A stretch of DNA of 64,000 nucleotides from contig CAVXTP010000017.1 in NCBI GenBank assembly GCA_963764715.1, positions 128,001 to 192,000 of the forward strand. The letters are read 5' to 3'. This document shows, piece after piece, positions 8,121 to 62,254 of the stretch (the first letter of the stretch is position 1; every line of letters starts with the position of its first letter). The notes beneath the pieces are model-generated. The model was not told the DNA's origin. It worked only from the letters and a program-made list of their open reading frames with translations, and did not search any database. This stretch comes from an uncultured Acidobacteriota bacterium. Its GTDB lineage: Bacteria; Acidobacteriota; Thermoanaerobaculia; UBA5066; Gp7-AA6. The translations under genes and the position numbers were made by a program.

Positions 8121-9332
8121 GTGACTTCCGCTTCGTCCGCCCTGGAGTTTCTGCGCCGCGGCTCGGTCGACCTGATCGAGGAGGCGGACCTCGCCCGCAA
8201 GATCGCGCGCGGCCCGGTCACCGTCAAAGTCGGTTTCGATCCCTCCGCGCCCGACATCCACCTCGGGCACACGGTGGTCCTGCGCAAGATGCGCCACTTC
8301 CAGGACGCCGGGCACCGGGTCGTCTTCGTGATCGGCGACTTCACCGGGGCGATCGGCGATCCGTCGGGCAAGAAGACGACCCGCCCCCAGCTGACGCGCG
8401 AGGAGATCGAGGAGAACGCCCGCACGTACACGAAACAGGCGTTCAAGATCCTCGACGCGGACAAGACGGTCATCGAGTTCAACGGCAAGTGGCTGAACGC
8501 CCTCGGCGCCGCCGGGCTGGTCCGCCTGGCGTCGCGGATCACGGTCGCCCGGATCCTCGAGCGCGACGACTTCCAGAAACGCTGGAGGGCGAACCAGCCG
8601 ATCGCCCTCCACGAGCTGCTCTACCCGCTCGCCCAGGGCTACGACTCGGTGGCGCTCAAGGCCGACGTCGAGCTCGGCGGAACCGACCAGCTCTTCAACC
8701 TGCTCGTGGGCCGCGACCTGATGCGCGCCGAGGGGCTGGAGCCCCAGGTCGTCATGACGCTGCCGCTCCTCGTCGGAATCGACGGCGTCGAGAAGATGTC
8801 GAAGTCGCTCGGCAACGCGATCGGCGTCCTCGACCCGCCGGGCGAGATGTACGGCAAGGTCATGTCGATCCCCGACGCGCTCCTCTGGAGCTGGTACGAG
8901 CTCCTGACGGACGCGCCGGCCGAGGAGATCGCGGCGCGGCGCCGCCGCGTCCAGGCCGGCCAGGAGAATCCGCGCGACGCCAAGGCCGAGCTCGCGCGCC
9001 GCATCACGACGGACTTCCACGGCGCCGAGGCCGCGGACCGGGCGGCCGAGGACTTCCGCCGGGCGTTCTCGCGCGGCGAGGTGCCCGCGGACGTCGAGAC
9101 GAAGGAGCTTCCCGCCGAGGGCGGCGGCCCGGCCGCGAAGACGCTCGTGGCGCTCGGGCTCTGCCCCTCGATGCGCGACGCGCGCCGGAAGCTCGAGGAG
9201 GGAGCGCTGAAGGTCTACGCCGACGGCGCGGGCGAGCCGCGCGAGGTCCGCGATCCCGAAGAAAAGCTCGCCCGACCCGGCGCGTCGGTGCTGCGCCTGG
9301 GGCGCCGCTTCATCCGCGTGGTCTGGAAGTAA
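8121..9332 (+). CDS. tyrS: Tyrosine--tRNA ligase
   Basis: GFDPSAPDIHLGH (HIGH), QGYDSV, GGTDQLFN, KMSKS; C-terminal S4-like domain. Confidence 0.97.
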   Translation: MTSASSALEFLRRGSVDLIEEADLARKIARGPVTVKVGFDPSAPDIHLGHTVVLRKMRHFQDAGHRVVFVIGDFTGAIGDPSGKKTTRPQLTREEIEENARTYTKQAFKILDADKTVIEFNGKWLNALGAAGLVRLASRITVARILERDDFQKRWRANQPIALHELLYPLAQGYDSVALKADVELGGTDQLFNLLVGRDLMRAEGLEPQVVMTLPLLVGIDGVEKMSKSLGNAIGVLDPPGEMYGKVMSIPDALLWSWYELLTDAPAEEIAARRRRVQAGQENPRDAKAELARRITTDFHGAEAADRAAEDFRRAFSRGEVPADVETKELPAEGGGPAAKTLVALGLCPSMRDARRKLEEGALKVYADGAGEPREVRDPEEKLARPGASVLRLGRRFIRVVWK

Positions 9333-9819
9333 ACGGCACGAGGCCCGTCCCGGCCCCTTCCTCGCTCGCGCCCTCCGAGGACTTCCGCCGCGGCCGGCAG
9401 GACCGGCAGATCCCGCGCATCTGGTGCGTATGGGAGAGCAGCACGAACCCGTGACGCTCGGCGACCTCGTCCTGGAGCTGCTCGATGCGCTCCTCGAAGA
9501 ACTCGATGACGCGTCCGCAGTGGTCGCAGATCAGGTGGTCGTGGTGGTCGCCGGCCCGCAGCCGCTCGTAGCGATACCCCGCCTCTCCGATGCGCAGGCG
9601 CCCGACGATGCCGGCGTCGACCATGAGCTCGAGCGTCCGGTAGATGGTGGCGCGGGAGATCTTCTTGTGCTTGGCGCGCAGCCGCACGAGGAGCTCGTCC
9701 GCCTCGACGTGCTCATGCCGGCTGAAGAGCTCGTCGAACAGGGCCTGGCGCTCGTGCGTGAGCTTGAGCCCCCGCCGTTCCAGGTACTTGCGAAAAATCT
9801 GCAGCTCGCGCTTTTCCAT
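9310..9819 (-). CDS. fur: Fur family transcriptional regulator
   Basis: LTHERQALF, ISRATIYRTL HTH, HHDHLICDHCG, CRSC; divergent from FTR1. Confidence 0.92.
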   Translation of the reverse strand: MEKRELQIFRKYLERRGLKLTHERQALFDELFSRHEHVEADELLVRLRAKHKKISRATIYRTLELMVDAGIVGRLRIGEAGYRYERLRAGDHHDHLICDHCGRVIEFFEERIEQLQDEVAERHGFVLLSHTHQMRGICRSCRPRRKSSEGASEEGAGTGLVPFTSRPRG

Positions 9820-9821
9820 GG

Positions 9822-9842
9822 GATTGCGACTCTGTCTCAATT
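9822..9842. promoter_or_regulatory. Putative Fur-type operator between fur and FTR1
   Basis: GATTGCGACTCTGTCTCAATT palindrome; near-copy at 11591-11611. Confidence 0.62.
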
Positions 9843-9902
9843 GCGGTACTCTCCCGCTTCCAGGCCGACAAGTCAAGCCATTCAGCGAAGGGAAACGAGG
9901 CC

Positions 9903-10694
9903 ATGTGGCAGGGATTCACGATCGCGCTCCGGGAGGGCATCGAGGCGTTTCTGATCGTCGCGCTGACCCTCTCCTATCTGGCCCGGACCCGGCGGCCCGC
10001 CCTGGCGCGGGCCGTGTACGCCGGGATCGCCGCCTCGGTCGTCACGTGCGCCCTCGCCGGGTGGTTCTTCTCGCGGGCCGTCAACCAGCCCCTCTGGGAG
10101 GGGATCCTCGCGCTCGCCGCGGCGGCCCTCGTCGGCAGCCTTCTCGTCTACATGAAGCGCGTGGCCTCGCGGCTGAAGTCGGACATCGAGAGCCGGATCG
10201 AGGCGAGCGCCAGCGCGGTCGACCCCGCGCGCGCGTTCTGGGGAGTCTTCGCGTTCACCGTCCTGATGATCACGCGGGAAGGCATGGAGACCGCCCTCCT
10301 GATCGCCACGGCCCTCTTCCAGATGAAGTCCTCCGCCGTCTTCCTGGGCCTCGCGCTCGGGCTGATTTCGGCCGCGGCGATCGGCGCCCTCTGGACGCGC
10401 CTGGGGAAGGGCGTCGACCTGAAGACGCTCCTGAACGTCTCGGCGGTCTTCCTGGCGATCTTCCTCGCGCAGCTCGTCCTCTACGGGATCCACGAGCTCT
10501 CCGAGGCCCGGCTCTTCCCCGCCTCGCAGGCGATCCACGACGCCACCGAGATCCTGGGTCCGGACGGGAAGATCGGCCGGCTTCTCGCCTACGCCCTCGC
10601 CGCGATTCCGACGGTCTGGCTGGGCGGAATGTGGTGGAAGCGCTGGCGCACGCGGGGGGCCGCTCCGGCGGCGCCGCGCACGAACGCGGCCTGA
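9903..10694 (+). CDS. FTR1/EfeU family iron permease
   Basis: Two RExxE motifs (REGIE, REGME), GIHELSEA, about 7 TM. Confidence 0.92.
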   Translation: MWQGFTIALREGIEAFLIVALTLSYLARTRRPALARAVYAGIAASVVTCALAGWFFSRAVNQPLWEGILALAAAALVGSLLVYMKRVASRLKSDIESRIEASASAVDPARAFWGVFAFTVLMITREGMETALLIATALFQMKSSAVFLGLALGLISAAAIGALWTRLGKGVDLKTLLNVSAVFLAIFLAQLVLYGIHELSEARLFPASQAIHDATEILGPDGKIGRLLAYALAAIPTVWLGGMWWKRWRTRGAAPAAPRTNAA

Positions 10695-10698
10695 GCGC

Positions 10699-11481
10699 TC
10701 AGCGCGCCGGCGCGGTCGGGCTCGGCTGATAACGGACGCCCGGGGTCACGGCGGCGCCCGACTGGATCATCGCCTCGATCACGCGCGGCGGAATTCCGTC
10801 CGCCCGCAGCTGCTGGATCTCGGCGGTCGTCAGCGCGTAGCGCCGGTTCTCCGCGCGCACCGCCTCGAGGAGCGCGTCGTCCGAGGCGCCGGCCTGCTTC
10901 ATCCGCACGATGGCCGCGTACGGTTTCTCGCCGGCGGCCGGGGTCCCGAACCACGGCTGGTCCGGCACGATGTTCGCGGGCCGGGGGGGCGTGACCACGG
11001 GCGTCGGCGTGACGGGAACGATCTTGCGCAGAAAGCCGGCCGGATGCCCGCCGCCCGACCCGCAGCCGGCCTTCGCGTCGGCGGAATGCGTGAAGTGGAT
11101 GACGTCGCGGCCCCCCGGAACGTCGACGTACTCGCCGACGAGCTCGACCCGGTCGCCCGGGACCAGGACGAGACCGTCCCCGCCACACGAGAGGTCGTGC
11201 ACCACCCTGATTCTCCCCATCATGTCCACGGGAGTGTTGCGGTCGGCGCCGGCGGGTTGCTCGGCGGCCACGAAGTACGCGTCGAGCGTGACCTCGAATT
11301 CCAGGAACTTCCGGCCGTTCTTGTGAACCGTCTTCCGCGGCGCGGTCTCGACCCGGGCCTTCGCGGTGATCTCGACGTGCGGGCTCTTGGACGACGGGGT
11401 CTTCCCCGGACGGGCCGCTCCGGCCGCCGCCACGAGAACGGCCGCCCCGAGTCCGATCGCCCGCGCCGCGCGTCGAAGCAC
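10699..11481 (-). CDS. Secreted hypothetical protein with DUF3465-like OB-fold
   Basis: Signal peptide; GDRVELVGEY..VIHFTH; C-terminal helical domain; GTG 6 nt after CATAAT. Confidence 0.65.
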   Translation of the reverse strand: MLRRAARAIGLGAAVLVAAAGAARPGKTPSSKSPHVEITAKARVETAPRKTVHKNGRKFLEFEVTLDAYFVAAEQPAGADRNTPVDMMGRIRVVHDLSCGGDGLVLVPGDRVELVGEYVDVPGGRDVIHFTHSADAKAGCGSGGGHPAGFLRKIVPVTPTPVVTPPRPANIVPDQPWFGTPAAGEKPYAAIVRMKQAGASDDALLEAVRAENRRYALTTAEIQQLRADGIPPRVIEAMIQSGAAVTPGVRYQPSPTAPAR

Positions 11482-11590
11482 GCGGGCATTATGGGTCAGC
11501 CGCTCCCGCGGATCCCCGCCCGGGCCCCCGGAAAGGCCGGTGCGCTCTCCTCTTGACGGACCGCGCCCGGGCGCACTATCCTTCCGACGC

Positions 11591-11611
11591 GACTGAGACT
11601 GAATCTCAATC
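11591..11611. promoter_or_regulatory. Putative Fur-type operator upstream of apbE operon
   Basis: GACTGAGACTGAATCTCAATC palindrome just downstream of TTGACG-N18-TATCCT. Confidence 0.65.
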
Positions 11612-11644
11612 CAAACGGACGATGGACGAGGAACGACGACGACG

Positions 11645-12670
11645 ATGCTGCCGCTCCTGACGCTCGCCGCCGCCCTGGCGGCCCCCGCCCGGCCCGTCCT
11701 CGTCGAACGGAGGGTGTCGTCCATGGGCACCGTCCTCGCGTTGACGGTCGCCGCGCCGACGCGCGACGGGGGACTCGACGCCTCCGAGCGGGCGATCCGG
11801 GAGATCCAGCGCGTCGAGGACCTCCTGACGACCTGGCGGGACAGCCCGCTCTCCCGGCTCGACGCGGCCCCGGTCGGGGCCGAGGCCCCGCTCGACGAGG
11901 AGCTCGCCGGCCTTCTCGCGACGACCTTCGCGTGGTCGGCCCGCACGGGCCGCGCCTTCGATCCGACCGTGATGCCGATCGTCCGCGCCTGGGACCTGCG
12001 CGGCGCGGGGCGGATTCCGTCTCCGGAAGAGCTCGCCGCGGCGCACGCCGCGACGGGAACCGGGCGCTTCCGCTTCGCGGCCGACGGACGGTCCGTGGCC
12101 CGGCTCGACCCGCGCGCGGGGATCGAGGAAGGCGCGTGGGGCAAGGGCTATGCGCTCGATCGCGCCGCGGAAAGGCTCGGCGGCGACGCCGGAGCGCTGA
12201 TCGACCTGGGAGGCCAGGTGCTCGCGCGCGGGCAGGACGATGCCGGCCGCGACTGGTCCGTCGCGATCGCCGACCCGCGGCGCCGCGACCGGCCGGTCCT
12301 CGCGCTGCGCCTTTCGAACGCCTCGGCCTCGACCTCGGGTGATTCGGAACGCCGCCGCGTCGTCGCCGGGCGCCGCATCGGCCATGTGCTCGACCCGCGC
12401 ACCGGCGAGCCCGCCGAGGATTTCGGGTCCGTGACCGTGATTGCTCCCTCGGCCCTCGACGCCGACATCCTTTCGACCGCGTTCTTCGTGCTCGGTCCCG
12501 ACGCGGGCCTCGCGCTCTCGGACCGCCTGCGGCTCGAGGGAGTTCCCAACGAAGCCCTCTATCTCGTGGTCCGCGGCGACGCGCTCGAAGCGCGGTCCAG
12601 CCCCGGAGTCTCCCGATTCTTGATCTCGGTCGACACGACGGTCGTGCACGGCCTTTCGACGGAGAGGTGA
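11645..12670 (+). CDS. apbE: FAD:protein FMN transferase (flavinyl transferase)
   Basis: MGT, AFDPTV, GKGYALD, DLGGQ, STSGDSER, GHVLDPRTG, ADILSTAFFVLG. Confidence 0.93.
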   Translation: MLPLLTLAAALAAPARPVLVERRVSSMGTVLALTVAAPTRDGGLDASERAIREIQRVEDLLTTWRDSPLSRLDAAPVGAEAPLDEELAGLLATTFAWSARTGRAFDPTVMPIVRAWDLRGAGRIPSPEELAAAHAATGTGRFRFAADGRSVARLDPRAGIEEGAWGKGYALDRAAERLGGDAGALIDLGGQVLARGQDDAGRDWSVAIADPRRRDRPVLALRLSNASASTSGDSERRRVVAGRRIGHVLDPRTGEPAEDFGSVTVIAPSALDADILSTAFFVLGPDAGLALSDRLRLEGVPNEALYLVVRGDALEARSSPGVSRFLISVDTTVVHGLSTER

Positions 12671-12684
12671 GGAGGATTCTTCCC

Positions 12685-14187
12685 ATGCATCGAGTCTCGA
12701 GAAGCGTCGTCGCCGCCATCCTCGCCCTCTCAGGCGCGCTCGCCGCGACGGCGCAGACCCCGACCCCCTCCCCCACCCCGGCGCCGGCCGCTCCCCTCTC
12801 GCCCGAGGAGCGGATCGAGCGCCTCGAGAAGCTCCTCGCCGAAACGCGCTCGGAGCTCGCCGAGGTCAAGGCGGCCTCCACCGGCGCCGCGACCGACGCG
12901 AAGCTCGCCGAGATCGAGCGCAAGGTCGACATCCTCGCCCAGGAGATCGAAGCGATGAAGCTCGGCGAGGCGGCGGCCTCGGGAGCTCCGCCGGCCGCTC
13001 CGGGCGAGGCTCCCGCCGTGGCCGCCGCGGCCGCGCCGCCCTCGCCCCGCACCGAAAAGCAGTCCCTCGACCGCTTCGGCCTCGGCCTCTCCGCGTCCAA
13101 GATCTACGGAATCAAGCGCGGCGTTTCGATCGGCGGCTACGGCGAGGCGCTCTACCAGAACTTCTCGAGCACGAACCAGAGCGACGAGCCCTCGGACGCC
13201 GAGGACCAGATCACGCTCCTGCGGGCCGTCGTCTACCTCGGCTACAAGTTCAACGAGCACTTCGTCCTGAACTCGGAGATCGAGTACGAGAACGCCGTCG
13301 TCGCGTCCGACAAGGGCGGCGAGGCCTCGGTCGAGTTCGCCTACCTCGACTACATGCACTCGCGCGAGCTCAACGCCCGCGCCGGCCTCGTTCTTCTCCC
13401 GGTCGGCCTCGTCAACGAGCTCCACGAGCCGACGGCGTTCCTCGGCGCCCTGCGGCCGGGCGTCGACGATGTGATCATCCCGACGACGTGGCGCGAGCTC
13501 GGCGGCGGCCTGTACGGCGAGCTCGGCCCCTTCGCCTACCGCGCGTATGCCGTCAACGGGCTCAACGCCGCCGGCTTCACCCCCGACGAGGGCATCCGCG
13601 AAGGCCGTTCGGAGGGCTCGGAGGCGCCGGCGACGAACTTCGCCGTGACGGCCCGCCTCGACTTCACCGCGGTTCCGGGGCTTCTCGTCGGCGCCTCGGT
13701 CTTCTCGGGCGACTCGGGCCAGGGACAGTTCACCCCCTCGGGGCAGAAGATCAGCGGCCTGACGACGCTCTGGGACGCGCATGCGGACTGGCGCTGGCGC
13801 GGGCTGTGGCTGCGCGGCGTCTACGCCCGGACGACGATCGCCCAGGCGAACCTCATCAACCAGCTCAACGATCTCGTCGGCGAGGAGTCGATCGGCAGCG
13901 TGCAGGAGGGCTGGTATCTGCAGGGCGCCTTCGACCTCTTCTCGCTCGAGGCGGGCGGGTCGCGCGCGGCGCTCATGCCGTTCGTGCGCTACGAGCAATA
14001 CGACACGCAGGCCGAGGTCCCGCTCGGCTACGCCCGGAACCCCGAAAACGATCGCACCGATCTGACGCTCGGCCTCGCCTACAAGCCGATCGACCAGATC
14101 ATCTTCAAGGCGGACTGGCAGCAGCGGCAGAATGCGGCCCGGACCGGAGTCAACCAGTGGAACATGTCGCTCGGATACATCTTCTAG
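12685..14187 (+). CDS. Outer-membrane porin (OprO/P-like) with N-terminal coiled coil
   Basis: Signal peptide, coiled coil, IGGYGE, EIEYE, HEPT, IIPTTWRE, terminal ...LGYIF beta-signal. Confidence 0.82.
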   Translation: MHRVSRSVVAAILALSGALAATAQTPTPSPTPAPAAPLSPEERIERLEKLLAETRSELAEVKAASTGAATDAKLAEIERKVDILAQEIEAMKLGEAAASGAPPAAPGEAPAVAAAAAPPSPRTEKQSLDRFGLGLSASKIYGIKRGVSIGGYGEALYQNFSSTNQSDEPSDAEDQITLLRAVVYLGYKFNEHFVLNSEIEYENAVVASDKGGEASVEFAYLDYMHSRELNARAGLVLLPVGLVNELHEPTAFLGALRPGVDDVIIPTTWRELGGGLYGELGPFAYRAYAVNGLNAAGFTPDEGIREGRSEGSEAPATNFAVTARLDFTAVPGLLVGASVFSGDSGQGQFTPSGQKISGLTTLWDAHADWRWRGLWLRGVYARTTIAQANLINQLNDLVGEESIGSVQEGWYLQGAFDLFSLEAGGSRAALMPFVRYEQYDTQAEVPLGYARNPENDRTDLTLGLAYKPIDQIIFKADWQQRQNAARTGVNQWNMSLGYIF

Positions 14188-14189
14188 GG

Positions 14190-14751
14190 ATGAACGTCCG
14201 GCGGCGGGCGCTCGCCTTCGCGGCGGGCGCCCTGCTCGCCTCGTCGCTCGAGGCGAAGGTCTTCCTCACCCGGGAGGAGGCCCTCCGGCTGGCGTTTCCG
14301 GGCGCCGAGGTCACGCGCTCGACGGCCTACCTGACCGACGCGCAGCGGCGCGAGGCGCAGAGCGCTTTCGCGCGACCCCGAGCTCCCGGCGGCGCTCGCC
14401 GCGTACTACACGGCGGTCAAGGACGGCCGCACGGTCGGCACCGCGTACTTCGACGCGCACCTCGTCCGCACCCTGCCCGAGACGATCATGGTCGTCGTCG
14501 ATCCGCGGGGAGCGATCGCGCGGATCGAGGTCCTGTCCTTCGACGAGCCCGAGGATTACCTGCCGCGGGCCGGCTGGTACGCTCAGTTCATCGGCAAACC
14601 CCTGAACGACGAGATGTCCCTGACGCGCGGCCTCCGCCCCGTCGCCGGGGCGACGCTGACGGCGCGCGCGACGACCGACGCGGCCCGCCGCGTCCTCGCG
14701 CTCCATCGCGTCCTGCATCCGCCGCCGCCCGCCGCCTCGCCGACGCCATGA
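14190..14751 (+). CDS. FMN-binding (flavinylated) exported protein; one +1 frameshift near 14361
   Basis: Signal peptide + KVFLTREEAL in one frame continues ALSRDPELP..VRTLPETIMVVVD..VAGATLT in the next; length 3n+1; GAT flavinylation motif. Confidence 0.82.
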
Positions 14752-15185
14752 AACGCTGGGAAGCCTGGTGGAACCACGCGGCGCTCGCCGCAGTCTCGCT
14801 GACGGGGCTCGTCTACGGCATCGCCCGCTATTTCCTCCACAACCCGGACCCCGATTCGCGCCTCGGCCATCCGTGGCAGCCCGGACTGATGAAGGCGCAC
14901 ATCCTGGTGGCGCCGCTCGCCGTCTTCGGCATCGGCCTGCTGCTTCGCCGCCACGCCCTGGCGCGCATCCGCAACGGCGAATCGAACGGGCGCCGGACGG
15001 GAGCCGCGATGCTCTGGCTCGCGCTCCCGCTGGCGCTCTCGGGGTACCTCGTGCAGGTCTTCGTCAGCCAGTCCGCGACGCGGCTGACGGGCTGGTCGCA
15101 CGCCGGCCTCGGCGCGGTCTTCCTTCTCGCGTACGCCTTCCATCCCAAGCGCCGCGCCCCGTCGGACGCCGGCACGGACGAGTGA
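14748..15185 (+). CDS. Small 4-TM His-rich membrane protein (cytochrome b/DUF4405-like)
   Basis: ATGA overlap; His in or next to helices (KAHIL, RRHA, WSHAG, AFHP). Confidence 0.72.
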   Translation: MKRWEAWWNHAALAAVSLTGLVYGIARYFLHNPDPDSRLGHPWQPGLMKAHILVAPLAVFGIGLLLRRHALARIRNGESNGRRTGAAMLWLALPLALSGYLVQVFVSQSATRLTGWSHAGLGAVFLLAYAFHPKRRAPSDAGTDE

Positions 15186-15197
15186 GGCGCCGCCGCC

Positions 15198-16121
15198 TCA
15201 GAAGACGTACGTCAGGCCGGCCGTGTACGCGGGCTTGATGTCCTGGATGCCGTTCAGGTCCTCCCAAACCGGAAACTGGGCGGCCGCGCGGGCGACCAGG
15301 CCCTTGACGACGTTCACGCCAACGCGCGGCGTGATGTACAGGCTCCGGCCTCCGGTGTCCGGATCGGGCACGCCGAGAGCGTCGACCTGGTCCCGCTCCG
15401 CGTCGAGGAAGTTGACCTCCACGACGCCGTCGAGCCAGTCGGTCAGCTTGCGGTCGTAGACGAAGTTGACCTGGACGTTGTCGCCGTACTTGTAGCCGAA
15501 ATCGTTGCGCCCGGTCCCGGTGTACGCGGCGGAGAGATACAGCGACGACAGCTCGTCGACGAGATAGAGCCCCGCGAGGCCGCCGGAGAGGTTGGTCGCG
15601 CCCGTCCCCGGCTGCACGTGCTCGTCCAGTCGCACGCCCTCCTCCGAGACGTCGTTCTTGCCCCACGGCGTCTTGACCGAGAAGACCGCCGAGATCCAGG
15701 CGCGCCGCCCGAGGGGCGACTGGAACGGCGAGGACCAGAGGCGAAAGTAGGCGAAAAAGACCGGGTCGCCGAGGCCGTCGGCGGTCTCGACCTCGTCGCC
15801 TTCCGTCAGGTGATTCCACATCACGGGGACCTGGGCGACGACGGTGAAGCGCTCGCGAAACCCGTAGGAGAGCGTCGCGATCATGGAGTTGCGGACCTGC
15901 TCCTCGAGGTCCGGGCCTTCACCCTGGCTCTGGTTCAGCCGGCTCCAGTCGAGGGCGATCTGGAAGCCGCCGTAGCTGTAGAGCCCCTCGCCGAGCGCGC
16001 TGAAGACGGGATCGCTGCAACGGCACATCGAGCAGGCTCCGGCCGAGGAGGGCACGAGAGCGAGGCCGAGAATCGTGAGACTGAACGCCGCCGCCAGGCG
16101 GAGATTGCCGCGATGCATCAA
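15198..16121 (-). CDS. Outer-membrane beta-barrel (MetA-phenol/SphA-like) with N-terminal CxxCxC
   Basis: Signal peptide then CSMCRCSD; GLGD, QPGTG motifs; terminal YVF. Confidence 0.78.
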   Translation of the reverse strand: MMHRGNLRLAAAFSLTILGLALVPSSAGACSMCRCSDPVFSALGEGLYSYGGFQIALDWSRLNQSQGEGPDLEEQVRNSMIATLSYGFRERFTVVAQVPVMWNHLTEGDEVETADGLGDPVFFAYFRLWSSPFQSPLGRRAWISAVFSVKTPWGKNDVSEEGVRLDEHVQPGTGATNLSGGLAGLYLVDELSSLYLSAAYTGTGRNDFGYKYGDNVQVNFVYDRKLTDWLDGVVEVNFLDAERDQVDALGVPDPDTGGRSLYITPRVGVNVVKGLVARAAAQFPVWEDLNGIQDIKPAYTAGLTYVF

Positions 16122-17339: not shown

Positions 17340-17903
17340 CTACGCCCGGCTGTCCCAGAGAACGTCGGCGACGCCGCGCCGCCGGTTCTCGTGGCGCGCC
17401 ATGACGAAGAGGGCGTCGGAGAGACGGTTCAGGTACCGGACCGTGTGCGCGCCCACGGGCTCCTTGCGCGAGAGCGCGATCACGAGACGCTCCGCGCGGC
17501 GGCAGACGGTGCGCGCGACATGGAGCTCGGCCGCCGACGGGCAGCCGCCCGGGAGCACGAAGTTCTCGAGCGGCGGAAGCTCCTCCGAGAGGCGGTCCAT
17601 CAGCGCCTCGAGCGCCTGGACGTGCCGGCCCTCGATCTTCGGCGCCGGGCGCCGGGCCTTGTCCTCCTCGAGGAGGCACAGGTCCGAGCCGAGGTGAAAG
17701 AGCTCGTTCTGGATCGTCGCGAGGGCCGCGCCGACCGTTTCGTTGACGCCCGCGGCGACGGCGACTCCGATGTGGCTGTTGAGCTCGTCGACCGTGCCGT
17801 AGGCCGCGATGCGAATCGAGTCCTTCGGGACCCGCTGGCCGCCGCCGAGCGCCGTCGTGCCGTCGTCGCCCGTGCGCGTGTAGACCTTCGTGATGCGCGG
17901 CAT
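17340..17903 (-). CDS. pduO: ATP:cob(I)alamin adenosyltransferase, PduO type
   Basis: [40 protein letters not shown]. Confidence 0.95.
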
Positions 17904-17907
17904 CGAG

Positions 17908-19947
17908 CTAGAACTTTACGTCCAATCCGCCGGCGACGAGCCGTCCGGCGGCCGGATATCCCGCCGCCTCTTCGTACGCGTGGTTCGTCAGGTTGATCAT
18001 CCGCAGGTACGGGGCGAGGTTGCGCGTCGCCTGCCACCTTGCGACGAGGTCGACCCGCAGGTACGAGGGGTCCTCGACGCGGTCCCCCGTCCGCGGGTCC
18101 GCGTCGGCGCGCGGCCCGACGTAGAGGAGCCGCGGCGAGAGGTCCACCTCCGGGATCGGCATCCAGGAAAAGCCGAGGCTCGCGCCGTTCTCGGGCCGGC
18201 GCAGCAGCGGGTCTCCGGTCGCGAGGTCCTCGGTCTTCAGGTACATGTACGTCGCGTTCACCGCGAGCCGCGGAAGGACCGTCTGCTGCCAGCCGAGCTC
18301 GACGCCGTACGTGCGCGCGTGCCCGACGTTGAAGTTCTGGAAGGCCGCGAAGTCGTACACGATCAGGTCCGTCAGGTCGTTCCAGAAGACCGAGACCTCG
18401 GCCCGGCCGCCGTCGAAGTAGCGCTCCGCGCCGACCTCCGCCGAGACCGACCGCTCGGGCTTCAGGTCCGGGTTCCCGCTGAAGGGGTAGTAGAGCTCGC
18501 CGATCGAGGGCGCGCGAAACCCCGTGCCGCCCGAGGCGCGCACCTTCCAGAGCTTGTCGGAGGAGAGCCACGAGATCGTCCCGCGCGGGCTCCAGGCGTC
18601 GCCGTAGGTCGAGTAGTGGTCGTAGCGCAGGCCCGCCGCGAACGTGAACGCGCCGAACGTCACGGAGTCCTGGGCGCCGAGGCCCCAGAGCGTCGTCCGA
18701 TCGTCGTCGAGGTTGATCCCGAAGTTGCTCTCGTCGCTGACCTGCCAGCGCTGCCACGACGCGAAGGCCGTCAGCGTGTGGGCTCCGAGCCTCGCCGTGT
18801 CCGACACGTTGGCCTGCAGCGTCTGCGCGTCGGTCTGCGAGGCATAGCCGCCGGCGGTGTCGCGGTAGGAAGGCTCGGAGCGCACGCCCGCGAGGTTGAC
18901 GTCGAGCCGGTTCGAGTCGGAGAGGGCAAACGAGCCGGGGACCGACAGCCGCGTTTCGTGGGTCGTGCCGCGCGCCGTGCTCGGCAAACCGAGCGGGCCC
19001 GGGTTGCCGACCTCGCCGTCGTTCAGGCCCCACTCGATGCCGATGCGGCTCTTCTCGGAGAGACGCGCCTGGAGGCTGGCCGAGCCGTTGCGCTGGCGCC
19101 AGTCGCTGTTGGGGCGGTCGCCGTCGAACGCCACGTACCGGTAGCTCGCCGTCGCGGTGATCGGCCCGTCTCCCGCCGAGACGAAAGCCGAGCCCTGCCC
19201 CTGGCCCTCGTTGCCGGCCTCCCCCGTCGCCCGTCCCGAGACGCCGTCCGACCCCGGGCGCGTGAAGATCTGCACGACGCCGCCGATCGCATCCGAGCCG
19301 TAGAGCGCCGAGTACGGGCCGCGCGCGATCTCGATCCGCTCGATGTTCTCGGTCGTCATGCCCGACCAGTCGTAGCCCGAAAAATACGGCGAGTTCATCC
19401 GCACGCCGTCGACCAGGACGAGCGTCTGCGTCGAGTTGGTGCCGCGGGTGAAGAGCGAGGTCAGCGAGCCCGGCGTCCCGTAGCGCACGACGTCGAGGCC
19501 CGGGACCGAGCGCAGGACGTCCGACACGACCGCCGACTCGTGCTTCTCGAGCTCCTCGCGCGTCACGACCGTGATCGCCGAGCCGACCTCCGTCTCGTCC
19601 TCCGGCACCGAGGTCGCCGTGACGACGATGCTCTCGGAGGCGGGCGGGACCTGTTGCGCGAAGACGGGGCCCGCCGCCGCGAAGAGGACGGCGGCGGTGG
19701 CAAACGCCCGCACGCGACGGCGGCGCGACAGAGCGTCGAGGCCGAAGAGCGTCGCCGTGCCGAGTTTCTGGTGCGTTGCCCGTTTCGGGCCCCGGTACGT
19801 AGGGGCGGGGCTTGTCCCCGCCCGAGGGCGGCCACGAGGGCCGCCCCTGCGACCGAAGCAAGTCGCGAAGAAGAAGGAGAAGAAGGGTGGATGGGGAACG
19901 AGCCGGGACAGGGCGCCGAGCAGAACCAGCAGGATGGCAGTCGTCAT
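17908..19947 (-). CDS. btuB: TonB-dependent vitamin B12 receptor with N-terminal DUF6580-like/REP-derived extension
   Basis: TonB box ESIVVTAT, plug [46 protein letters not shown], terminal F; downstream of B12 riboswitch, upstream of pduO. Confidence 0.9.
19799..19850. repeat. REP doublet inside the btuB ORF
   Basis: GTAGGGGCGGGGCTTGTCCCCGCCC followed by inverted partner GGGCGGCCACGAGGGCCGCCCCTGC, same pair as 42412-42470. Confidence 0.9.
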
Positions 19948-20056
19948 TCGAACCTCCCGTTCGACAGGACGGATCTCTCGAACGGTTCGAGAAGCGTCCC
20001 GCGCCCCGGGAATTCGAAGGCGCGTCTCTCGTGTGGCCCCGTCCGAGAAGCGTGTC

Positions 20057-20253
20057 GTTCGGCAGGTCTCCTGGCTTCCGGATCGACCGCCTGCGGGCTC
20101 CTTCCCGGCTGCGCAACCGGCGTGTGCCGATCTCTCGCATCCAGTGGTTTGCCGCCCGAGGCGTCCCCGGTGACAGTGGCGGGGGCCGCGTGGGATTCAC
20201 ACCCACTTCCCTTGGCCGAACGAGTCAAAGAGCGCGAAGGGCTGGAACCATAA
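20057..20253 (-). promoter_or_regulatory. Cobalamin riboswitch
   Basis: Minus strand: GGTTCC..AAGGGAAGTGGGTGTGAATCCCACGCGGCCCCCGCCACTGT..CCACTG..GGGAAG..AAGCCAGGAGACCTGCC. Confidence 0.95.
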
Positions 20254-23292: not shown

Positions 23293-23454
23293 GGAGGGCG
23301 CCGGGGCCGTAGGGGCGGGGCTTGTTCCCGCACTCGTGCATCTCGCCATATCCGAACGGAGGGCGCCCACGAGGGGCGCCCCTACGACCGTGACCGGATT
23401 CCGCCACCCGGCAAATTACGAGCCCCGTCGTAGGGGCGGGGCTTGTCCCCGCCC
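23289..23454. repeat. REP cluster (three GTAG palindromes plus a degenerate one)
   Basis: 23309-23333 (+), 23361-23385 (-, GTAGGGGCGCCCCTCGTGGGCGCCC), 23430-23454 (+). Confidence 0.88.
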
Positions 23455-42385: not shown

Positions 42386-42411
42386 CAGCAGTCACTCCAA
42401 TTCCCCGGGGC

Positions 42412-42470
42412 GTAGGGGCGGGGCTTGTCCCCGCCCTCCCGGATCGGGCGGCCACGAGGGCCGCCCCTAC
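42412..42470. repeat. REP doublet (REPIN-like)
   Basis: GTAGGGGCGGGGCTTGTCCCCGCCC - 9 nt - GGGCGGCCACGAGGGCCGCCCCTAC. Confidence 0.9.
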
Positions 42471-42483
42471 GACCGGGGGCCCA

Positions 42484-49904: not shown

Positions 49905-49962
49905 GTAGAGCTTCGCGGTCGGCGTTCCGCCCGAAGCGCCGGGACGGACCATGCGGCCGCCC

Positions 49963-49987
49963 GGGCGGGGACAAGCCCCGCCCCTAC
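49963..49987 (-). repeat. REP palindrome whose GTAG provides the topA stop codon
   Basis: Reverse complement is GTAGGGGCGGGGCTTGTCCCCGCCC. Confidence 0.9.
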
Positions 49988-52557
49988 GACCGAGCCGCTC
50001 TTTTCGCGGCGCGTGGCTTGGACTTCTTGCTCGCCGCGACGACCACCGCCTCCGGAACCTCCGGCGGCGCCTCGGGCGTGAATTCGACGATCGGCGGCAG
50101 CTCGCCGGCGGGCTTCTCGAATCCGCAGCCCGCCTTGTCGCAGGCGAAGACGTTGCCGGACTTGCGTTCCCGGAAGAGGAGGTACGGGTTGCCGCACTGC
50201 GGGCACTTTTCGGGGATCGGCCGCACCGAGAGCGAGAAGTCGCAGTTCGGGTAGTTGATGCAGCCGTAGAAGGGCCGGAAGCGTCCGCGCCGCTCGGCGA
50301 TGATGCCGCCGTCCTTGGGGCACCGCACGCCCGTGTCCTTCACGGGCTTCGGGGGCTTGTACTTGCAGGCCGGGTAGTTCGAGCACGACACGTACGCGCC
50401 GAAGCGGCCGTGCCGCCGCACGAGCCCGTTGCCGCAGCGGGGGCAGATCTCCCCGGTCGGCTCGTCGGGCTTGGCCTCGGCCTTGCCGCCCGCGACGGCG
50501 ATGTTCACGACGTTCCGGCACTTGGGGTACGCGGTGCAGCCGAGGAAGGTCGAGCCCGTGCGGCTCTGGCGCACTTTCATCGGCTCGCCGCACTCGTCGC
50601 AGGTCGTCTTCTCGAGCTCCGACATGTCGACGGCGTCTTCCTCGGGGTCCGGGATGTCCTGCGTGAACGTGCACTCGGGGTAGCCGCTGCACGCGATGAA
50701 GAGTCCGTTCTTGCCCATGCGAAGCTTCAGCTTCTTGCCGCACTTGGGGCACTTCTCGTCCATGACCGGCACGGCCGAGAGCTTGAGCTTCTTCGCCTGG
50801 GCGAGCGGGATGCCGGCCTTGCCCGAGACCATGCCGTCGAGGGCCCGGTCGCGGTCGCGCGTGAAGGTCTTGTCGAAGTCCGTCAGCGCCTTCGTCCAGG
50901 AGAGCTTGCCCTCCTCGACGTCGTCGAGGGCCTCCTCCATCCGCGCCGTGTAGGCGGTCTCGAAGAAGTCGTCGAAGTACGGGATCAGGAGCTCGATGAC
51001 CGTCCGGCCGAGGGCGGTCGGAATGAAGCGGCGGTCCTTGCGGTGAACGTACCGGCGCTCTTCGATCTTGCGCAGGATCTCGGCGTAGGTCGAGGGACGG
51101 CCGATGCCGTTCTCCTCGAGGAACTTGACGAGCGAGGCCTCGTTGAAGCGCGGCGGCGGCTGGGTCGCCTTCTTCTCGGGCAGGACCTCGACGAGCTTCA
51201 GCGTCTCGCCCTGCGTCAGGGGCGGCAGCTTCGGCGAGTCCTTGTCCGAGTCGTCGTCCTCGTCGGCCGAGACGCCGTAGGCCGCGAGGTAGCCGGCGAA
51301 CTTCAGCGTCGAGCCCGAGGCGCGGTAGACCGCGCGTCCGGCCGTGATGTCGGCCGAGGTCGTGTCGTAGACGGCGGGCGCCATCTGCGAGGCGACGAAG
51401 CGCTCCCAGATGATCCGGTAGATCTTCGCCTCGTCGGCGGCGACGTACCTGGCGACCTCGTCGGGCGGCAGGTCGAGGTACGTCGGCCGGATCGCCTCGT
51501 GCGCGTCCTGCGTGTCGCGGCGGCTCTTGAAGTACCGCGGCGACTCGGGCATCGACTCGGGCCCGTACTTTGCGGCGATGTGCTCGCGGACCGCCGTGAG
51601 GGCGTCGGCGGAGACGCGGGTCGAGTCGGTGCGCATGTACGTGATCAATCCGACGGTCCCCCGCCCCGGGATCTCGCGGCCCTCGTAGAGCCGCTGGGCG
51701 ATCTGCATCGTGCGCCGGACGGCGAAGCCGCGACGGGCCGCGGCCTGCTGGAGCTGCGAGGTGATGAAGGGCGGCGCCGGGTTCTTCCGGCGCTCGGAGG
51801 TCTCGACGGAGGAGACGGTCCACGCGGCCTTCGAGACCTCGTCGACGACCTTCTTCGCCGACGTCTCGTCCGGCAGGCGCGGGTCGGTGCCGTCGAACTT
51901 GAGCTTCTCGCCGTCGAACGACGAGAGCCGCGCCGTGAACTCCGGCGGGACCTTCCCCGAGAGCTTCGCGTCGACCGACCAGTATTCGACCGGGACGAAG
52001 GCCTCGATCTCGTTCTCGCGCTCGCAGATGATCCGCAGCGCCACGGTCTGGACGCGCCCGGCGGAAAGGCCCCGCCAGACCTTCTTCCACAGCAGGTCCG
52101 ACACCTCGTAGCCGACGAGCCGGTCGATGATGCGGCGCGCCTGCTGGGCGTCGACCCGCCGGCCGTCGATCTCGCCCGCCTGCTCCATCGCCGCGAGCAC
52201 GGCCTTCTTGGTGATCTCGTTGAAGCGGACGCGCTGGAACTTCGTCTTGCCCGCGCCCGGCTGGAGGGTCTGCTGGAGGTGCCACGAGATGGCCTCGCCC
52301 TCGCGGTCGGGGTCGGCGGCCAGATAGACGTTGTCGGCCGCCTTCGCCGCCTTCTTCAGCTCGTTGATCGTCTTCTCTTTGCCGGCCAGGACCTCGTACG
52401 TGGGCGCATAGGAATGTCCGCGGTCGATCCCGAGGCCCTTGCGCGGCAGGTCGCGGACATGGCCGTACGACGCGAGGACCTTGAACCCCTTGCCGAGAAA
52501 TTTCTCGAGGGTCTTGGCCTTCGCGGGCGACTCGACGATGACGATGGACTTGGCCAT
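49984..52557 (-). CDS. topA: DNA topoisomerase I
   Basis: IVESPAKAK, DPDREGE, SAGRVQ, ITYMRTDS, GIGRPSTY, several C4 zinc ribbons. Confidence 0.97.
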   Translation of the reverse strand: MAKSIVIVESPAKAKTLEKFLGKGFKVLASYGHVRDLPRKGLGIDRGHSYAPTYEVLAGKEKTINELKKAAKAADNVYLAADPDREGEAISWHLQQTLQPGAGKTKFQRVRFNEITKKAVLAAMEQAGEIDGRRVDAQQARRIIDRLVGYEVSDLLWKKVWRGLSAGRVQTVALRIICERENEIEAFVPVEYWSVDAKLSGKVPPEFTARLSSFDGEKLKFDGTDPRLPDETSAKKVVDEVSKAAWTVSSVETSERRKNPAPPFITSQLQQAAARRGFAVRRTMQIAQRLYEGREIPGRGTVGLITYMRTDSTRVSADALTAVREHIAAKYGPESMPESPRYFKSRRDTQDAHEAIRPTYLDLPPDEVARYVAADEAKIYRIIWERFVASQMAPAVYDTTSADITAGRAVYRASGSTLKFAGYLAAYGVSADEDDDSDKDSPKLPPLTQGETLKLVEVLPEKKATQPPPRFNEASLVKFLEENGIGRPSTYAEILRKIEERRYVHRKDRRFIPTALGRTVIELLIPYFDDFFETAYTARMEEALDDVEEGKLSWTKALTDFDKTFTRDRDRALDGMVSGKAGIPLAQAKKLKLSAVPVMDEKCPKCGKKLKLRMGKNGLFIACSGYPECTFTQDIPDPEEDAVDMSELEKTTCDECGEPMKVRQSRTGSTFLGCTAYPKCRNVVNIAVAGGKAEAKPDEPTGEICPRCGNGLVRRHGRFGAYVSCSNYPACKYKPPKPVKDTGVRCPKDGGIIAERRGRFRPFYGCINYPNCDFSLSVRPIPEKCPQCGNPYLLFRERKSGNVFACDKAGCGFEKPAGELPPIVEFTPEAPPEVPEAVVVAASKKSKPRAAKRAARS

Positions 52558-61765: not shown

Positions 61766-62254
61766 TCACGCGGCCCCCGGGGACTCCAGATCCCGGCGCA
61801 CCGGCACGAGCGCCGCCAGCCGCCCCTCGCGCAGGTACAGACCTCCCCAGACGAGCAACGCGACGTACGACGGAAACAGAACGTGGATGAAGAGCGGCTC
61901 GCCGAGCCTCTCCTGGGACGCCGTCGCGCCGCCGAGATAGCCCGTCAGGAGGATTGCGCCGAGCACGGCCGTGCGCGGGAAGACGTAGGCCGCCACGCAC
62001 AGGAGCTCGAGGATGCCCAACCCGACGGCGAGGTCTCCGGGGTAGCCGAGGTGCTCGAACGACTCCCGGACCGGGCCGATCCGGCACAGGAGCTCGAGGA
62101 TGCCGATCCCGCCGGCGAGGTCTCCGGGGGAGCCGAGGTGCTCGAACGACTCCAGGACCGCGCCGATCCGGGCGAGCTTGATGCCGCCGTCGAAAAGGAG
62201 GAAGGCCACGGCGAGCGAGCTCAAGACCCATCCGGCGACGCGTTTTCTGTTCAT
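61766..62254 (-). CDS. DoxX family membrane protein with internal 29-aa duplication
   Basis: FDGGIKL, GILEL, PRTAVLGAILLTGYLGGA. Confidence 0.85.
   Translation of the reverse strand: MNRKRVAGWVLSSLAVAFLLFDGGIKLARIGAVLESFEHLGSPGDLAGGIGILELLCRIGPVRESFEHLGYPGDLAVGLGILELLCVAAYVFPRTAVLGAILLTGYLGGATASQERLGEPLFIHVLFPSYVALLVWGGLYLREGRLAALVPVRRDLESPGAA
61997..62170. repeat. 87-bp tandem duplication
   Basis: 61997-62083 vs 62084-62170, 6 mismatches by eye. Confidence 0.9.

Follow-up and report, generated by a model that had tools for sequence, protein, structure and literature searches.

A DUF6580 carrier fused to a BtuB-like receptor behind a cobalamin riboswitch: a probable two-membrane polyprotein of Thermoanaerobaculia and a copy without its carrier core

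A TonB-dependent receptor gene in an uncultured Acidobacteriota genome carries, ahead of a predicted internal signal peptide and in the same open reading frame (ORF), the two ends of a DUF6580 (PF20221) membrane protein that relatives retain whole. In this clade of soil bacteria, the ancestral gene likely encodes a two-membrane polyprotein that signal peptidase I would cut to give a carrier in the inner membrane and a receptor in the outer one; cleavage, targeting, B12 as the substrate, and expression in the window genome are the parts that we infer. The fusion, the features of its linker, the fold model, the gene context, and the repeated loss of the carrier were all obtained with computational tools. 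The interest lies in the fusion family rather than in the broken copy in the window, which is the whole 64,000-nt stretch of DNA that was analysed; all coordinates are positions in it unless a locus is named. The features of the window locus are as follows.

17340-17903, minus strand: PduO-type cobalamin adenosyltransferase gene (PF01923, E 1.8e-62), starting 4 nt past the receptor stop
17908-19947, minus strand: TonB-receptor ORF of 679 codons (679 aa), open throughout, with no stop
17908-19656, minus strand: predicted mature TonB-dependent outer-membrane receptor, BtuB-like, with TonB box, plug, barrel, and C-terminal Phe
19657-19725, minus strand: predicted internal Sec signal peptide with an Arg-rich n-region, a hydrophobic core, and A97 at -1, containing a GTG at 19713 that lacks a Shine-Dalgarno (SD) sequence
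19726-19764, minus strand: C-terminal remnant of carrier helix 6 (codons 62-74), matching the intact relative P0002 from residue 149
19765-19884, minus strand: in-frame replacement of 120 nt (codons 22-61, 40 codons) that, by alignment to P0002, stands for 127 codons (22-148)
19798-19855, no strand assigned: head-to-head dimer of GTAG-type REP sequences within the replacement, 58 nt, with a twin at 42411-42475
19885-19947, minus strand: N-terminal remnant (codons 1-21, helix 1 and RLxPHPP) of a DUF6580 S-component-like carrier, 21/21 identical to P0002
19942-19971, minus strand: predicted invariant hairpin whose loop carries the ribosome-binding site and whose lower stem takes in codons 1 and 2, from an alignment of 18 sequences
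20044-20235, minus strand: cobalamin riboswitch aptamer (RF00174), full model in Rfam, 92 bits against a cut-off of 31.5
2066-2092, 2242-2266, 23307-23390, 23429-23454, 42411-42475, and 49962-49988, strand not given: intergenic GTAG REP copies, single and as dimers, from a scan of the window

The SD sequence of the receptor ORF (GGAGG) lies 6 nt upstream of its ATG, and the same cobalamin riboswitch leader is found at 17 related loci. A first-pass annotation, made by a model from the sequence alone, had described this ORF as following a B12 riboswitch and a GGAGG, with no stop and with no SD ahead of the internal GTG at 19713, and was borne out by the open frame, the Rfam match, and the absence of any SD-like match before that GTG. 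Residues 119-653 form the plug and barrel of a TonB-dependent receptor, whose TonB box and C-terminal Phe are likewise present. Among solved structures, the receptor comes closest to E. coli BtuB (E 1.6e-49), and its top NCBIfam family is the BtuB equivalog TIGR01779, at 283.9 bits against a cut-off of 599.7, so the receptor is called BtuB-like by context and nearest structure only. The PduO-type adenosyltransferase gene lies downstream of the receptor in 9 of the 10 clade loci scanned. Scans for promoters and terminators found none, and no EcfT/ATPase module was found among the window ORFs scanned. The N-terminal 98 aa gave no Pfam match at E up to 10, PF20221 included, and the link to DUF6580 therefore rests on relatives.

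The closest intact form, P0002, is a 765-aa DUF6580-BtuB-like fusion that is 93% identical to the window protein and scores 126.5 bits against PF20221 (threshold 27). Residues 1-21 of the window protein are identical to residues 1-21 of P0002, and residues 62-98 match its residues 149-184 at 32/37 positions. The earlier assignment of the ORF ends to DUF6580 thus holds through their match to an intact fusion, and fails at the direct HMM check of the window residues. The full-length model of P0002 consists of two separate domains with a helix at 126-162 and a low-confidence linker at 164-208.

DUF6580 precedes the receptor in 81 of the best 120 relatives listed, and the named taxa are Thermoanaerobaculia. 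Among longer proteins, a DUF6580 profile search gave 225 matches, the best 120 of which were nearly all the same fusion. The fusion set comprises 145 full-length fusion clusters of one Thermoanaerobaculia clade, drawn from 434 proteins collected; the full-length fusions that the first-pass annotation had expected in related genomes do exist. Conservation is equal in the carrier and the receptor half of these fusions (medians of 69% and 66%). At the genome level, DUF6580 stands directly before the receptor in 18 of at least 79 loci, 17 of which have an open junction; a stop that always separates the two genes in relatives was the outcome that had been named as fatal to a fusion reading. The one exception, L009, has a frameshift in the junction and counts against the polyprotein reading. 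Most other loci have a stand-alone receptor with its own signal. Fusions form one clade in the receptor tree, with one stand-alone receptor that has an ordinary signal (L019:185-1951) grouped inside it at weak support.

In the ESM Atlas the fusion architecture appears as a cluster with an automatic name and 95 members, most of them Acidobacteriota, and annotation labels the fusions no more than 'TonB-dependent receptor' or 'vitamin B12 transporter', a warning that plain receptor or transporter names hide them. The architecture is catalogued but uninterpreted, as far as our literature search went: that search, which covered few subscription papers, found no account of DUF6580 or of its fusion to a receptor, and the homologue list in Supplementary Data 1 of the BtuM paper might include DUF6580 proteins.

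The linker between helix 6 and the TonB box (30-63 residues) varies in sequence and keeps the make-up of a Sec signal in 145/145 fusions, as scored by self-made rules rather than a trained predictor. Its best hydrophobic 10-mer has a mean KD of 2.67 and a minimum of 1.92 over all 145, whereas the tails of stand-alone DUF6580 proteins, taken as a control, reach a KD of at least 1.5 in 4/180 only. At least two Arg or Lys residues precede the hydrophobic core in 144/145, an Ala or Gly at -1 stands before the first Gln after the core (A/G↓Q) in 139/145, and the -3/-1 rule is satisfied in 137/145 (8 exceptions), with Pro common at -6 and -4 of the predicted cut. The three marks of a signal peptidase I substrate (positive n-region, core, and small residues at -3/-1) are thus found in 144, 145, and 137 of the 145, and the putative signal peptide that had been placed between carrier remnant and BtuB from the window alone recurs throughout the family. 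In 115/145 fusions, 9 residues separate the predicted cut from the TonB box (range 8-19), which is near the spacing in mature E. coli BtuB. About nine residues are far too short for an uncut tether spanning the periplasm.

Under the polyprotein reading, translation would start at the riboswitch-controlled ATG and the first ~160 residues would insert in the inner membrane as a six-helix carrier of the S-component fold that ends on the cytoplasmic side. Next in the chain, the Arg-rich tail and the hydrophobic segment would act as an internal Sec signal that sends the remainder to the periplasm, where a cut by signal peptidase I at A/G↓Q would give the BtuB-like receptor a normal N-terminus and free it to assemble in the outer membrane, leaving the carrier behind with the signal as its seventh helix. 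The carrier is probably BtuM-like, providing facilitated uptake followed by trapping by the adenosyltransferase encoded next. In the window genome, a recent lesion would have swapped helices 2-6a for 120 nt containing a REP dimer, making the gene a receptor with a 97-residue leader that survives because its start and frame were kept.

The model of DUF6580, built from 148 sequences, has six helices and a mean pLDDT of 93.6. In a structure search of 48,161 solved chains, its top 15 matches were all S-components (Z 9.6-14.5), followed by an unrelated row at Z 8.1, which places the predicted model in the S-component fold. The best match is BtuM (Z 14.5, rmsd 3.1, 160 aligned), which is also the top Foldseek row, in a search where no match reached E 0.001. 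The sole PDB sequence match is 6fnp, ECF-CbrT, at a weak E of 0.024-0.038 over the N-terminal half; BtuM was absent from the matches (E up to 10) of the PDB profile search with DUF6580. Together with the 145 fusion clusters, the fold model supports the proposal of the first-pass annotation that the ancestral gene joined an inner-membrane carrier to an outer-membrane receptor. The carrier topology it implied also fits, given the fold and the cytosolic C-terminus described for BtuM (PMC6072759).

As far as PMC6072759 describes it, BtuM has six helices with both termini cytosolic, needs no ECF module, binds cobalt via Cys80 with pocket residues H28, D67, Y85, and R153, and has a gene that usually adjoins btuB and the gene of an adenosyltransferase proposed to trap the vitamin. 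The fused carrier resembles this BtuM in its predicted S-component fold (Z 14.5), in predicted cytosolic termini, in the adjoining btuB and cobalamin adenosyltransferase, and in that no ECF module was seen among the window ORFs scanned; it differs in having neither a profile match to BtuM at E up to 10 nor the loop cysteine, in being fused to a receptor, and in a partner of the PduO rather than the BtuR type. The conserved residues of DUF6580 (R15, H19, N22, D54, and Y74) may, by residue order, correspond to the BtuM pocket, and the order of the H, D, and Y residues would likewise equate the loop between D54 and Y74 with the Cys80 loop. The invariant BtuM cysteine is absent: a Cys occurs in that interval in 2/145 fusions and 2/188 others. 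At best, DUF6580 acts in the manner of BtuM without belonging to that family.

The earlier designation as a B12 carrier agrees with context and fold (riboswitch, adenosyltransferase, and BtuM-like model), and sits less well with two Planctomycetota loci in which the closest stand-alone homologues of the fused domain adjoin a 4-HFC-P synthase gene. In these loci (L065:6001-7278 and L076:6001-7020), DUF6580 lies beside, or in one ORF with, the synthase, which hints at a different substrate. B12 as the substrate is uncertain given these neighbours and the missing cysteine, and the substrate need not be uniform across a family of 6839 clusters (50% identity, E 0.001). A cleaved polyprotein whose carrier moves a non-cobalamin substrate, or acts as a sensor or accessory factor, would accommodate these same observations, as well as the use of S-component folds as receptors (PMC11109136, as far as it describes them) and the frequent loss of the carrier detailed below. 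We regard it as fairly unlikely, however, with a cobalamin riboswitch, a BtuB-like partner, and an adenosyltransferase in one operon, and with nearest relatives by structure (BtuM) and by sequence (CbrT) that are B12 carriers. Furthermore, separate genes for the receptor (btuB), DUF6580, and a periplasmic binding protein stand in that order at L057 and L058, with no btuCD beside them among the ORFs scanned (L057:6019-9843 and L058:6001-9309).

In the window copy, both junctions of the 120-nt replacement fall on codon boundaries, and the segment encodes 9 Arg/Lys and no Asp/Glu, with a GC3 of 0.75 vs 0.96 in the receptor. A REP doublet within some 40 codons had been noted previously; the segment is indeed exactly 120 nt and contains the doublet, which spans 19798-19855 rather than 19799-19850. 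The REP pattern has 6 matches in the window vs 0.31 expected (1/6 unrelated), and these sequences have the properties of GTAG REPs, namely a GTAG foot and short palindrome, multiple and mostly intergenic copies, and dimers. The other window copies all lie between called genes, and the best twin, at 42411-42475, is 88% identical to the inserted dimer (E 9e-11), which has a shorter spacer. No cognate RAYT transposase was found among the window ORFs scanned.

The REP dimer makes up less than half of the insert and is flanked by 29 and 33 nt of untraced sequence, for which no match beyond REP was found in the window or the 79 loci and only a REP-like match in plasmids. The flanks were also considered as worn remnants of carrier helices 5 and 6; the best match (SFFFAT vs AVFFTT, codons 105-110, same frame) was not significant (p 0.08-0.21 at the protein level, at least 0.09 at the DNA level). 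In-frame intragenic GTAG REP dimers coding for 20-30 aa are described in PMC3733652; as far as that source describes them, they are likewise head to head, with their GTAG ends outside, and translated in frame, whereas the window dimer is accompanied by the loss of 127 codons and by 62 nt of untraced flanks.

The untouched carrier ends suggest a recent lesion, which was found in a single sequence (P0001, 1 member). The carrier core is gone, a REP lies at the site, and the frame was kept, as the first-pass annotation had it; a causal role of the REP in the REP-associated event that it proposed is unproven and rests on co-location, since short forms without a recognisable REP-coded segment arose repeatedly and a REP is thus not needed for carrier loss. 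It is unlikely that the lesion is an assembly artefact in which a REP-bearing piece was joined into a genome that is really intact, a possibility that concerns the window copy and not the family. Such an origin would suit a lesion found in a single sequence, the tendency of repeats to cause mis-joins, and the chance of about 15% (1/3 x 0.46) that an insert keeps the frame free of stops by itself. The window also contains at least one frameshift elsewhere, near 14355-14360 in a conserved gene (14190-14751) that is intact in L001, L003, L014, and L032, which could reflect a sequencing error or a pseudogene. Against an artefact stand the differences between the inserted dimer and its window twin, the codon-boundary junctions, comparable junk-filled leaders in relatives that come from several sources and in some cases have 5-13 members, and a different in-frame loss in P0003, the nearest relative of the window copy by receptor sequence. 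P0003 kept different parts of the carrier, and its loss is therefore separate.

Among the best 120 relatives listed, 27 (the window copy included) are short forms that keep the native start and run, without the carrier core, in frame into the signal, and all 27 retain the hydrophobic core and cleavage site. Their leaders are 20-97 residues long, that of the window being the longest. Another 11 short forms lack the native start and were left out as partial or uncertain, except that two remained in the large tree. In that tree, of 142 receptor sequences (a subset of the 145 fusions), short forms fall in 18 separate clades; in a tree of 54 sequences with hand-picked nearby fusions they require at least 14 changes, and a single clade of short forms is rejected (AU p 1.7e-12). 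Recombination could be the source of some of these changes. The protein search favours in-frame short forms, and both deletions seen at the DNA level (L014 and L017) are also in frame. Such frequent loss argues that the carrier is not essential, which counts against the polyprotein reading.

The upstream start is strongly conserved. The leader SD and ATG are invariant in 21/21 sequences (20 loci and the window), and the fusions begin MTT or MAT in 141/145, which a hairpin with codons 1-2 in its stem would explain. In the start-codon hairpin, 99.4% of cells are paired across the 18 aligned sequences vs 10-50% in slid-partner controls, and the hairpin is the consensus fold. No covariation or compensatory change was found in these 18 sequences because the pairs are nearly invariant. 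When the window fragment is folded as a single sequence, a structure other than the hairpin has the minimum energy. The hairpin is likely the P13/L13 expression element of the riboswitch, with a putative SD-bearing kissing loop.

It is very unlikely that the two products merely share a frame, with the receptor made from an internal codon and the fusion amounting to a missing stop. Internal initiation is suggested by the window GTG at 19713, which would give a normal 19-residue signal and from whose position the 93%-identical relative P0004 was called, and by plausible internal starts with a 4-nt SD-like match at 2 of the 17 open-junction loci (L002 and L007); these observations count against the polyprotein reading. 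However, 6 of the 17 have no in-frame ATG, GTG, or TTG within 12-45 codons before the cut, and in the remaining loci the candidate positions vary from -12 to -41. With no stop in between, moreover, translation of the carrier would still yield a fusion that has to be cut, and the upstream start has stayed in frame in the 27 short forms (a sample in which in-frame cases are favoured) and in the two DNA-level deletions. An uncut fusion that bridges both membranes as one transporter would explain why both halves share a chain but is extremely unlikely, with only ~9 residues between signal and TonB box, a conserved -3/-1 pattern, and S-components that are thought, according to the account in PMC6072759, to topple in the membrane.

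Several known systems resemble parts of the cleaved polyprotein. E. coli BtuB shares the plug, the barrel, a TonB box near the mature N-terminus, and a cobalamin riboswitch, and differs in its ordinary N-terminal signal, the window receptor scoring far below the TIGR01779 cut-off. ECF-CbrT (6fnp) is a cobalamin S-component and the only PDB sequence match, and CbrT needs an ECF module, of which none was found among the window ORFs scanned. FbcH of Bradyrhizobium japonicum reportedly yields cytochromes b and c1 from one gene, and may by analogy be the nearest precedent for the DUF6580-receptor polyprotein. FbcH reportedly makes, and the fusion would make, two proteins from one gene in which a multi-pass membrane protein is followed by a signal-like internal linker and an exported protein, and the DUF6580 fusion has this FbcH-type arrangement in a single ORF, apparently with no separate start. 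The FbcH products are reportedly two inner-membrane subunits of one complex, whereas those of the fusion would go to different membranes, act in series, and be controlled by a riboswitch. To our knowledge, the one-ORF design is known only from FbcH, with both products in the inner membrane.

If correct, the polyprotein reading would provide a natural case in which one bacterial ORF yields an inner-membrane transporter and an outer-membrane beta-barrel, in fixed 1:1 synthesis under one riboswitch. DUF6580 would gain a fold and a testable function, and a Sec signal may be able to work behind leaders of 20 to ~185 residues. A DUF6580 carrier also bears on an open question presented in PMC6072759, that of the many Gram-negative B12 auxotrophs in which BtuB is present and BtuCDF is missing. 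We give about even chances to a broader reading, in which a whole two-membrane import pathway is encoded as a signal-peptidase-split polyprotein that arose at least twice (in Thermoanaerobaculia and independently in the protein P0372, with halves unrelated to those of the clade), DUF6580 proteins are unrecognised solitary S-component vitamin carriers that take cobamides without the BtuM cysteine and could fill the BtuB-without-BtuCDF gap, and the repeated in-frame losses are decay of the polyprotein to an ordinary receptor, with the frame maintained by a start codon that is part of the riboswitch.

In P0372, a single protein sequence of 922 aa, DUF6580 is followed by a signal-like linker and then by a plug and barrel. 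The two halves of P0372 share 45% and 32% identity with those of P0002 and are placed elsewhere in both trees, and its receptor resembles Bacteroidota-type clusters; by its sequence it is apparently an independent second fusion of DUF6580, signal, and TonB receptor, to be treated as a lead only. Other unusual proteins include P0379 (473 aa), in which DUF6580 and a signal-like linker precede a cytochrome c'-like domain, which may represent the polyprotein design with a different exported partner or else the loss of a stop, and P0386, in which a diphthamide-synthase-like protein (PF01902) is fused to DUF6580. A PF01902 gene also recurs in the B12 operons (L004:8993-9592, L007:9252-9989, L015:8997-9677, and L057:9184-9843). 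In P0118 a receptor fragment runs into the adenosyltransferase, which is probably the result of a frameshift, and P0136 is a partial fusion labelled Gemmatimonadota, attributable to transfer or mis-binning.

Elsewhere in the window, positions 9313-16121 encode Fur, an FTR1 iron permease, an ApbE flavin transferase, a probable outer-membrane protein, and a CxxC-bearing exported protein, a cluster that resembles a flavinylation-linked iron uptake locus. Positions 61997-62170 contain two tandem 87-nt copies that are 93% identical.
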